Assembly (NCBI RefSeq): GCF_013122565.1
Contig: NZ_CP053258.1
Strand: one strand, 5' to 3'
Length of the DNA stretch: 64,000 nt
Origin: Escherichia coli
GTDB lineage: Bacteria; Pseudomonadota; Gammaproteobacteria; Enterobacterales; Enterobacteriaceae
Shown here: piece by piece, positions 54,929-56,089 of the stretch
Layout: every line of letters begins with the position of its first letter
How positions within the stretch are numbered: the stretch's first letter is position 1
The notes under the pieces: model-generated
Told to the model about the DNA's origin: nothing
Database searches by the model: none
The model's input: only the letters and a program-made list of their open reading frames with translations
Made by a program: the position numbers and the translations under genes

Positions 54929-56089
54929 TTACGCAGCGCTTTTATTTTTTGACGCGTCGATATAACTGTGCTCAGTTGGGCTAACCAACATGCTCAGGTT
55001 ATAAATAAACGGCATACATTTTGATTGCGCCGGAATAATTCCGTGAGCAGTTTGAATTTCGTAGCCGCTGATGTCAGACCAGGCGTAATCATTATCCAGC
55101 AGAGTCAGGGCAATGAAACGCTGCAACGCTGGGGAAAAGAGTGCCTTCACGATATAGCCCACGTCTTGACCTTCCACCAGCACACGATCGCCAGCCTCAA
55201 TGCCTTCGCATTCTTCCTGAGCGATCATGCCGATGAGTTTATTACCGGTATACTCCTGGGAGAGCTCTGTCACCGCGTCCTTGCCAATAAAATCATCTTT
55301 GTCGTACTGCACCGCCCACTGCATCTGCAACTGAACCGGATTCACTGCCTGACCTTCCCAGAGGCTGGCATCCCAGCACGGATTTTCGAGGCGTACGATT
55401 TTTTGATAATCCAGGCCGCCGGTCTGCATCAGGTATTTCTCGCCGACGGTTAACAGTTTTTCCCACTGCTCCGCCAGTTTCGCCTGCTCACCGATGGTCA
55501 TGTACGCATACTCACCGTGTTTACCACAGCGGAAGATCAGCAGATCCTCCTCGGTATTCATGTATTCGTAGTAAGGCAGGCCAATAACGTCAAAGCCATG
55601 AATTTCAGACATGATCTCCCAGGAGTATGGGCCTTCGAGCAGGATTGCCCCCCAGTTGTTTTCCCGCATATCCTGAATTTCAGGCATCGATTGAATATCC
55701 AGTTCTTCCGCTTTTTCGAGAATGGTATTCATGCTGGCGATCAATTCGGCAGCCGAAATATCTTCTGAAAGCAGGTAATAACCGTCAATGCTGCACAGCA
55801 CATAGACGTCTCCGCGAATGGTGCCCTCTTCATTCAACACCAGTGAGTAGATTGCCTGCTCATCACGAATGATGGAGACATCTGCGGAAACCAGCTGGTT
55901 GATCAGCGCCCAGGCATCATCGCCCATGACGCTAACAATAGAGAGGTGAGAATAGTCCACCAGCAGCGCGTTTTCACGAACGGCTTTATATTCGGTCATA
56001 GCATCGTGATAAGAAGAAGGTAGGGTACGGTTGTTATATACCCCCATTACCGCATTATTTTTCAAGTGAAATTCAGCAAGAGATTTCAT
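54929..56089 (-). CDS. GcvT-family (aminomethyltransferase/folate-binding) protein
   Basis: 386 aa. EYKAVRENALLVDYSHLSIVSVMGDDA... aligns by eye with E. coli GcvT [25 protein letters not shown]. RLEN and FIGKDAV also align. Confidence 0.7.
   Translation of the reverse strand: MKSLAEFHLKNNAVMGVYNNRTLPSSYHDAMTEYKAVRENALLVDYSHLSIVSVMGDDAWALINQLVSADVSIIRDEQAIYSLVLNEEGTIRGDVYVLCSIDGYYLLSEDISAAELIASMNTILEKAEELDIQSMPEIQDMRENNWGAILLEGPYSWEIMSEIHGFDVIGLPYYEYMNTEEDLLIFRCGKHGEYAYMTIGEQAKLAEQWEKLLTVGEKYLMQTGGLDYQKIVRLENPCWDASLWEGQAVNPVQLQMQWAVQYDKDDFIGKDAVTELSQEYTGNKLIGMIAQEECEGIEAGDRVLVEGQDVGYIVKALFSPALQRFIALTLLDNDYAWSDISGYEIQTAHGIIPAQSKCMPFIYNLSMLVSPTEHSYIDASKNKSAA

Follow-up and report, generated by a model that had tools for sequence, protein, structure and literature searches.

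A CylF-like GcvT-fold protein encoded between acyl carrier protein and ketosynthase genes in a putative diderm relative of the cyl operon in Escherichia coli

The cyl operon of group B Streptococcus, with the gene order cylX-D-G-acpC-Z-A-B-E-F-I-J-K, includes cylF, which encodes an 'aminomethyltransferase' of the glycine-cleavage T-protein (GcvT) family and lies directly before the ketosynthase gene cylI (PMC4315905). The product of the operon, granadaene, is an ornithine rhamno-polyene that is both pigment and haemolysin (PMC3674703). Beyond group B Streptococcus, cyl operons are carried by Bacillus, Lactococcus, Acidipropionibacterium and other hosts, and the acyltransferase CylE is said to be universally present in them. 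CylF has been described as universally conserved in cyl operons, which a 2020 survey recorded only in firmicutes, actinobacteria and one chloroflexi (PMC6985545). Two functions have been proposed for CylF: in 2013, formation of a methylated derivative of granadaene that had been detected by mass spectrometry (Whidbey et al.; PMC3674703), and in 2020, provision of ammonia for ornithine synthesis (PMC6985545). Here we analysed a stretch of 64,000 nucleotides from Escherichia coli (NCBI RefSeq assembly GCF_013122565.1, contig NZ_CP053258.1), referred to below as the window, in which a first-pass annotation had pointed to a GcvT-like open reading frame (ORF) between the genes of an acyl carrier protein (ACP) and of a fused ketosynthase and chain-length factor (KS-CLF). 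The comparisons presented below indicate that this gene is a proteobacterial homologue of cylF, that its operon is a diderm relative of cyl, and that canonical folate binding is not conserved in the CylF-like family.

The gene lies on the minus strand (Table 1), starts with an ATG that has AGGA 9 nt ahead of it and encodes 386 aa; its place in the ORF list and the distance of exactly 35 nt between the ACP stop codon and its start codon were confirmed. The KS-CLF gene, with two ketosynthase domains, is the next one downstream after a gap of 73 nt, and a GcvT-fold protein is thus encoded within an acyl-chain assembly operon, as had been annotated. The protein is a member of the GcvT (T-protein) fold, and the earlier by-eye alignment to glycine-cleavage T protein was correct: Pfam GCV_T (PF01571) is matched end to end (115.3 bits, E 3.7e-33, cut-off 25.6, profile positions 2-255 of 255) and GCV_T_C (PF08669) with 31.4 bits (cut-off 25.9), so that both GcvT-superfamily domains exceed the Pfam gathering thresholds. 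The closest solved relative is the T-protein of Thermotoga maritima (E 2.5e-24). An AlphaFold2 model built on an alignment of 73 sequences reached a predicted local distance difference test (pLDDT) of 95.6 and a predicted template modelling score (pTM) of 0.92, and its top Foldseek matches in the PDB were the T-proteins 1wos and 1woo, with template modelling (TM) scores of 0.81-0.87 and a root-mean-square deviation of 2.7 A. T-proteins, sarcosine oxidase alpha and DmdA are among the top 13 matches (TM 0.77-0.87), and YgfZ, Iba57 and LigM fit the model clearly worse (TM 0.52-0.63 for YgfZ/Iba57). RefSeq labels the identical gene 'aminomethyltransferase family protein', and the NCBIfam cut-offs for GcvT itself were not reached (TIGR00528, 99.1 vs 235.85 bits; NF001567, 136.2 vs 300; NF010093, 82 vs 459).

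Two Gram-positive representatives for comparison were obtained by tblastn of plasmids. On Priestia megaterium pBM500 (L095) the gene order is short-chain dehydrogenase/reductase (SDR), thioesterase, phosphopantetheinyl transferase, malonyl-CoA:ACP transacylase (MCAT), FabG, ACP, FabZ, GcvT-like gene, 809-aa KS-CLF and major facilitator superfamily transporter; on the Bacillus wiedmannii plasmid (L096) it is glycosyltransferase, ATP-binding cassette (ABC) gene, permease, thioesterase, FabD, ketoreductase (KR), ACP, FabZ, 1038-aa protein, 434-aa protein, cylF, 818-aa KS-CLF and rmlACBD. In both loci, as in the window, a two-domain ketosynthase is encoded immediately after the CylF-like gene. By blastp, counterparts in Bacillus were obtained for seven window proteins, namely the ABC ATPase (29% identical to that of the B. 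wiedmannii cyl cluster, E 1e-24), MCAT (E 1e-28 to 1e-34 against the Gram-positive cluster MCATs), KR (36-37% identical to the Gram-positive cluster KRs), ACP (39% identical to that of the P. megaterium cluster and 32% to the B. wiedmannii cyl ACP), dehydratase (DH; E about 1e-15 against the Bacillus and Priestia cluster FabZ), CylF, and KS-CLF, which is 28% identical end to end to the B. wiedmannii cyl KS-CLF (E 3e-96). The CylF-like window protein is 21-29% identical to the two Gram-positive representatives and scores 97 bits against Bacillus CylF vs 77 bits against E. coli GcvT. In a neighbour-joining (NJ) tree all the ACP-linked proteins formed one clade apart from the canonical GcvTs, with a bootstrap value of 100. 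It unites the window family with the Priestia protein, Bacillus CylF and six relatives at greater distance, of which five have a visible ACP gene immediately upstream. The window gene therefore very probably encodes a CylF-clade core subunit of a cyl-like polyene-lipid pathway. The first-pass annotation had known of no characterised precedent for such a gene; CylF of group B Streptococcus, encoded before cylI, is a precedent (PMC4315905, PMC6985545), and what stands of that statement is that the role of such a protein is not established, CylF being without biochemical characterisation in the literature searched. No description of a diderm version of the cyl machinery was found in the same literature.

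The window operon shares with cyl the genes for MCAT, KR, ACP, a FabZ-type DH and an ABC ATPase, and neither encodes an enoyl reductase, none being present among the Pfam matches of the window cluster. The two differ in that the window cluster has no CylE acyltransferase, glycosyltransferase or rhamnose genes: the Bacillus 1038-aa and 434-aa proteins had no match among the 17 window cluster proteins at E 1e-3, and no acyltransferase domain besides MCAT was found in the window cluster. It adds a second ketosynthase (KS2) with a 317-aa putative partner, a Lol-like export system, YcdU and, in its clade, the exoprotein and transporter pair TpsA/TpsB. CylE, ornithine and aminotransferase genes are missing from the proteobacterial clusters in general, and no gcvH, gcvP, lipoyl or folate gene was found in the window cluster or in any of the clusters compared with it.

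The position of the CylF-like gene is fixed across a wide range of bacteria. A search of 1.8 billion representatives gave a sharp family edge, with a top score of 647 bits and a few sequences at 229-334 bits (35-42% identity), below which the scores form a continuum from about 170 bits down. The 16 genes follow an identical order in Acinetobacter, in a species of Neisseria and in Aeromonas veronii, with identities of 61-64%. A species-level scan of one genome per species yielded 79 loci from Enterobacterales, Pseudomonas/Aquipseudomonas, Marinobacter, Paraburkholderia, Lysobacterales, Bermanella, Arenicella, Neisseria, Acinetobacter, Desulfatitalea and a metagenome-assembled genome (MAG) of Leptospirales, and KR, DH, ACP, CylF-like, KS-CLF and KS2 genes share one strand in 75 of them, with identities as low as about 30%. 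Co-occurrence with the KS-CLF gene had been proposed as a check on the annotation; for the ACP and KS-CLF genes alike it is near-total across Proteobacteria and beyond. The four non-collinear loci are three short or cut contigs and one orphan copy. Wherever a sampled context includes upstream sequence, an ACP gene lies immediately ahead of the CylF-like gene (39-42%, 35%, 31% and 27-30% identity), and most readable relatives have a fused KS-CLF gene directly downstream, the three genes keeping this order at 39-42%, 35% and 28-31% identity; the pair of ACP and CylF-like gene is kept even where the ketosynthase gene is not adjacent or the ketosynthase genes are unfused. In high-GC Pseudomonas loci the automated adjacency count misses ACP neighbours owing to overlapping stop-to-stop ORFs, and the gene lists show the ACP to be adjacent there. 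Among 83 distinct family members with 32-72% identity, 50 positions are at least 97% conserved, which argues for strong purifying selection on the gene, and the family has a conserved C-terminal tail (P360, F361, N364, S366, P371 and S375). The orphan copy (L034:10001-11149, 'Salmonella enterica strain s1', CP191473.1) is 48% identical to the window protein and has both Pfam domains intact; it has no ACP or ketosynthase nearby, is the sole locus of the 79 without a cluster, and is neighboured by ecp/mat-type fimbrial genes, a LuxR-type regulator, a histidine phosphatase and a YcdC/RutR-like TetR regulator.

The tetrahydrofolate (THF) contacts Met56, Asp101, Tyr197 and Glu204 of HsGcvT are canonical and invariant in folate-binding relatives, Arg233 being specific to GcvT; Glu204 forms a double hydrogen bond to the pterin, and Asp101 activates N10 (PMC9551070). 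The T. maritima equivalents, assigned by motif and spacing, are M51, D96, Y188, E195 and R227, and in the canonical GcvTs of our alignments the Asp, Tyr, Glu and Arg columns are invariant, with Met or Leu in the Met column. The window protein has L49, D94, K190, M197 and Q229 at these five positions. Asp94 aligns with the Asp of 3A8K (D97N, E. coli GcvT), the second D of the VIDDL motif, and this catalytic-position Asp is kept in 82 of the 83 family members, while the Met56 position remains hydrophobic (M, F, Y or L). Of the 83 sequences, 79 have Lys at the Tyr position, which is part of a near-invariant Lys190-His191 pair; the Glu204 position holds K (52), M (13), L (10) or Q (4) and in no member E, and the position of HsGcvT Arg233 is without R throughout, with Q in 69 members, L in 7 and H in 7. 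The sampled distant ACP-linked relatives and the Gram-positive examples, including the Bacillus and Priestia proteins, likewise have neither the Glu that binds the pterin nor the Arg specific to GcvT; the window family differs from Bacillus CylF in keeping the Asp and Lys190-His191, the Asp being replaced by Leu and the Lys by Val in the Bacillus protein. The term 'folate-binding' in the first-pass annotation is therefore not borne out, as only the Asp and the hydrophobic residue at the Met position remain. Retention of the Asp with loss of the other THF contacts has been taken as an argument that Iba57, and probably YgfZ, do not use folate (PMC9551070). By the same reasoning on aligned residues, we lean slightly towards a CylF-like protein that is folate-independent. 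The loss of folate-binding residues together with absence from orthologous clusters had been named beforehand as the mark of a passenger or decaying gene; the residues are indeed lost, while the gene is clearly not absent from the clusters.

We give about an even chance to the reading that the CylF-like protein is an ACP-partnered, folate-independent subunit of a cyl-like polyene synthase, which handles the chain or acts as a catalyst of an unassigned kind and does not supply one-carbon (C1) units or ammonia. Within this reading, a direct partnership with the ACP appears likely, and a specific chain-handling role is put forward only tentatively. The chain would be built by AcpS, KR, DH, ACP, the CylF-like protein, the fused KS-CLF, KS2 with its possible CLF-like partner, and MCAT, and by analogy with granadaene synthesis, and with no enoyl reductase encoded, the acyl chain produced is predicted to be a long conjugated polyene. 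Its export to the outer membrane, a destination that fits the Lol-like genes, would run through a MacB/Lol-like ABC system, a LolA-like carrier and an envelope protein. In the CylF-like protein the lipoyl-H-protein partner of T-proteins would be exchanged for the neighbouring phosphopantetheinyl-ACP, whose tethered chain would enter the tunnel occupied in T-proteins by the lipoyl arm and by folate; the change of polar pterin anchors to Lys, Met, Leu or Gln suggests that the folate end of this tunnel has been put to other use. A CylF branch that has kept the T-protein fold with both ligands swapped, phosphopantetheinyl-ACP for lipoyl-H-protein and the growing polyene for folate, is a possibility that we consider doubtful. 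Acting without folate, the protein may serve as a chain-sequestering, priming or length-gating subunit, or alternatively as a catalyst of a yet unassigned reaction using Asp94, Lys190 and His191, and would supply neither ammonia nor a C1 unit for the head group. The gene stays with the ACP and KS-CLF genes whether or not thioesterase, CylE, sugar and ornithine genes are present, which points to a role in chain building, and clusters without CylE and ornithine genes still keep it, which argues against a role in head-group formation. An amino or methylated starter or head group, or else a scaffold role, had originally been suggested for the protein; of these options, the residues favour the non-C1 or scaffold one.

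A THF-dependent C1 transferase, the main idea of the first-pass annotation, which with non-canonical pterin binding would aminomethylate, methylate or demethylate an ACP-bound starter, chain or head group, seems improbable to us, even though it would agree with a GcvT fold of TM up to 0.87 to folate-bound T-proteins, with the Asp and the hydrophobic residue kept at the catalytic and Met56 positions, with Glu193, Arg233 and Glu235 of the window protein being invariant as in T-proteins, and with the suggestion of Whidbey et al. that the methylated derivative is made by CylF (PMC3674703). The replacement of the pterin Glu, the GcvT Arg and the pocket Tyr throughout or nearly throughout the 83 members, with Glu and Arg missing in the wider clade sampled, speaks against it, as does the reading of an equal pattern of loss as folate independence in Iba57 and YgfZ (PMC9551070), and even the Asp is replaced in Bacillus CylF (Leu), in the sequence P0190 (Ile) and in Priestia (Glu). 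Much further down in probability stands a true T-protein action on aminomethyl-lipoyl-H-protein, in which locally released ammonia or methylene-THF feeds head-group (ornithine) synthesis. This is the published prediction for CylF (PMC6985545) and would fit the overall GcvT homology; the window protein, however, scores far under the GcvT equivalog cut-offs (99 vs 235.85 bits and 136 vs 300), and it has lost the Glu, Tyr and Arg contacts to THF. Nor is there conservation at the residue aligned beside the column of E. coli Arg292, an arginine that, in work by Okamura-Ikeda in 2010, reportedly contacts the lipoyl arm. Moreover, the neighbouring gene is always an ACP gene and never gcvH or gcvP, the proteobacterial clusters keep the CylF-like gene without CylE, ornithine or aminotransferase genes, and E. 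coli has its own gcvTHP operon, which lies elsewhere. The reading as a passenger or decaying gene that plays no part in the operon has next to no probability and is excluded by the conservation data: a truncated 287-aa variant cluster (P0034, 143 member sequences) and the orphan copy L034 could be cited for it, whereas the gene keeps its collinear place in 75 of 79 loci, which span Gamma-, Beta- and Deltaproteobacteria and the Leptospirales MAG, has 50 highly conserved positions, is never less than full-length in the 381 E. coli genomes with a copy, and gives a confident and compact AlphaFold2 model.

Several points weigh against the folate-independent, ACP-partnered role that we prefer. The retained Asp, an invariant Glu193 and an Arg233-x-Glu235 motif are common to true T-proteins and could still serve C1 chemistry, and, with the case for folate loss resting on aligned residues, folate may adopt a non-canonical pose. 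The window protein shares only 21% identity with Bacillus CylF (97 bits), which lacks the Asp at the aligned position, and the CylF-like clade may not share one chemistry. The NJ tree is a distance-based one of 26 sequences with 100 bootstraps, rooted on E. coli GcvT, and the link to streptococcal CylF consists of the gene name on the Bacillus plasmid, the operon content and the published gene order.

Comparison with other GcvT-fold families sets the CylF-like protein apart. With GcvT (1WOO, 3A8I, 1WSV) it shares the three-domain fold, the DxSH, GE, RLE and FSP motifs, the catalytic-position Asp and a partner with a long swinging thiol arm that is encoded alongside (gcvH for GcvT, the ACP gene here); it differs in that this partner is lipoyl-H-protein for GcvT and ACP here, in the replaced Tyr, Glu and Arg contacts to THF, and in the conserved C-terminal tail of the CylF-like family. 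YgfZ/Iba57 (COG0354) are similar in fold and in retaining the Asp with the other THF contacts lost, and different in genomic context and partner; membership of that group was rejected because the KGC(Y/F)xGQE cysteine motif is absent and the Foldseek TM is lower than the at least 0.81 obtained for T-proteins. A demethylase of the DmdA, LigM/DesA or Tdm type was likewise rejected, the scores being 74.1 vs 410 bits for DmdA, 27 vs 580 for LigM, 29.8 vs 800 for DesA and 89.1 vs 1100 for Tdm, and so was a cispentacin-type AmcB/E/F system, for which scores were below cut-off and only general ACP, FabZ and ketosynthase homology was seen. Among polyene systems, the aryl polyene (APE), xanthomonadin and flexirubin clusters resemble the window cluster in their organisation like type II fatty acid or polyketide synthases (PKS), with a dedicated ACP, KS/CLF, KR and DH and no enoyl reductase, and in a LolA-like carrier for outer-membrane delivery; for the DH, weak ApeI-like Pfam matches were seen. 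APE clusters use an aryl starter with an adenylating enzyme and have an MMPL exporter, acyltransferases, a glycosyltransferase and unfused KS and CLF, and we know of no GcvT-fold protein in them.

Table 1. Genes of the CylF-like cluster in the window, given in their minus-strand order.
Feature	Position	Strand	Basis
TpsA exoprotein, filamentous-haemagglutinin N-terminal domain	59847..63659	-	TPS domain in ~850-aa orthologues
TpsB (ShlB/FhaC family) two-partner-secretion (TPS) transporter	58139..59758	-	directly upstream of acpS; RefSeq; Pfam POTRA, ShlB in orthologues
Dedicated holo-ACP synthase, AcpS type	57755..58123	-	Pfam ACPS; RefSeq name acpS
SDR ketoreductase, CylG homologue	56980..57777	-	Pfam adh_short_C2, KR
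FabZ-like dehydratase, CylZ homologue	56428..56976	-	Pfam FabA, NCBIfam FabZ
Dedicated ACP, 93 aa, AcpC homologue	56125..56406	-	Pfam PP-binding
CylF-like protein, GcvT/T-protein fold, 386 aa	54929..56089	-	Pfam, AlphaFold2, Foldseek, NJ tree, residue alignment
Fused KS-CLF, 852 aa, CylI/CylH-I homologue	52297..54855	-	two ketoacyl-synt + Ketoacyl-synt_C pairs
Second, atypical ketosynthase KS2	51069..52358	-	Pfam ketoacyl-synt, Ketoacyl-synt_C
317-aa protein, possibly CLF-like partner of KS2	50119..51072	-	collinear across loci
ABC transporter ATPase, CylA homologue	49401..50195	-	RefSeq annotation
218-aa protein, one N-terminal hydrophobic segment	48761..49417	-	conserved in cluster; no Pfam/NCBIfam match
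MacB/LolCE-type ABC permease	47450..48760	-	NCBIfam lolCE 91.5 bits (below cut-off); Pfam MacB_PCD, FtsX in orthologues
LolA-like outer-membrane lipoprotein-sorting protein	46653..47441	-	Pfam LolA_like, E 2.6e-36
462-aa secreted protein, possibly outer-membrane component	45268..46656	-	no Pfam match; conserved in cluster
MCAT (CylD or FabD equivalent)	44313..45257	-	Pfam Acyl_transf_1
YcdU, polytopic membrane protein	43330..44316	-	4-nt overlap with MCAT gene

The ketosynthases of the cluster have features of their own. In the KS half of the KS-CLF the Cys-His-His residues are kept in 81-82 of 82 sequences, and in the CLF half (KS-CLF residues about 601-609) the nucleophile position is Thr in 68 and Ser in 10 of the 82 and never Gln, the residue that characterises the chain-length factors of aromatic type II PKS at that position; the B. 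wiedmannii cyl KS-CLF (L096:15021-17477) has Cys there. Neither a KAS III nor an adenylating enzyme was found in the window cluster. The RefSeq start of KS2 is a Met that gives 407 aa (51069-52292). KS2, collinear in 75 of the 79 loci, keeps the Cys and an invariant first catalytic His, and has an invariant Tyr at the second-His position, which was placed by eye without alignment to a reference ketosynthase. For the 317-aa protein no Pfam or NCBIfam match was obtained, and hhalign gave a weak match to the KS2 profile over the region of the ketosynthase nucleophile (probability 33%, E 4.5e-4), which suggests that the two proteins form a second, very divergent KS/CLF-like pair.

At the other end of the cluster, YcdU had nothing significant in Pfam or NCBIfam. 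YcdU-like polytopic proteins follow MCAT in Providencia-type loci (E 1e-6 to 1e-12; L007, L059, L062), and the Desulfatitalea ORF after MCAT (L077:1533-2633) matches the Providencia YcdU-like protein with E 2e-14. The gene ycdU is probably the last of the operon, and its product is a candidate for the missing membrane transfer step. This relative of a haemolytic-lipid operon is accompanied by a haemolysin/adhesin-type secretion system. The 26 species-level loci with a CylF-like protein of at least 55% identity to that of the window all have TpsB, and 25 of them have TpsA; TpsB was never seen in more distant loci, and the Providencia-type loci have TpsA only (the loci listed for the pair are L002, L004, L005, L011-L033, L044, L072 and L074). 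RefSeq marks the same TpsA gene in the reference strain as frameshifted.

Within E. coli, the CylF-like gene is full-length in 381 of 5426 complete genomes, including those of O157:H7 and O55:H7; it is 100% identical in strain RM14516 and 99% identical in the O157:H7 and O55:H7 copies. The O157:H7 matches and the end of the region at ycdU fit O-island 47 (OI-47) of EDL933 (z1528-z1556), for which the literature searched deals only with the regulator GrvA, the distribution of the island and, in passing, 'Fab genes'. A probe of MCAT and ycdU (43330-45257) matched 2667 of the 5426 genomes, 389 of them over at least 80% of its length, and in the sampled rows the shorter matches begin at probe base 602, inside MCAT. 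Many E. coli thus seem to carry a 3' MCAT stump with ycdU, which looks like a scar of operon deletion rather than a sign of insertion in O157. Just beyond ycdU, a P4-type integrase-like ORF (41160-42251) and an IS200/IS605 TnpA-like ORF (42542-43051), both on the minus strand, mark mobile DNA at the edge of the operon, and the equivalent side in RM14516 holds IS200, ISEc31 and CP4-like prophage genes. The G+C content is low (0.34-0.41) at window positions 20001-24000, 28001-30000 and 38001-42000, vs about 0.48-0.54 elsewhere, and these stretches probably hold other horizontally acquired segments. Some operon-bearing PLSDB records (NZ_CP124742.1, NZ_CP134663.1 and NZ_OL790811.1) are chromosome-sized or resemble pieces of a chromosome, examples of such doubtful records being a 212-kb EDL933, a 4.9-Mb E. 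coli and several 4.1-Mb Proteus mirabilis sequences, and a plasmid location of the operon is not to be inferred from them. For Enterobacter bugandensis (322 kb) and Rahnella sikkimica (549 kb), the records may represent true large plasmids.

CylF is part of the operon for the haemolytic pigment of group B Streptococcus, a major virulence factor, and the ideas on its function in the literature searched were two guesses, the methylated derivative of 2013 and the ammonia for ornithine of 2020. The finding that a CylF-like gene travels with ACP and ketosynthase genes where ornithine, CylE and sugar genes are absent, together with the loss of the folate anchors, suggests that the role of CylF belongs to chain building and not to head-group supply. 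The Gram-negative, CylE-less and putatively Lol-exported version described here extends cyl beyond the Gram-positive phyla and the one chloroflexi of the 2020 survey, and places it in pathogens and in hosts that are readily manipulated genetically, among them E. coli O157:H7/O55:H7, Enterobacter, Klebsiella oxytoca, Acinetobacter and Proteus/Providencia. If the swap of both ligands is true, type II polyene synthases would have in the CylF-like protein an accessory subunit or catalyst of a new kind. Islands of the OI-47 type would then be the source of a so far undescribed granadaene-like envelope lipid, which the equivalent operon would also make in Enterobacter, K. oxytoca, Acinetobacter, Serratia, Pseudomonas and Paraburkholderia, and the lipid of the enterobacterial clade would have a functional link to a two-partner-secreted exoprotein. 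Should the lipid resemble granadaene, these bacteria could possess a membrane-active factor that has been overlooked.

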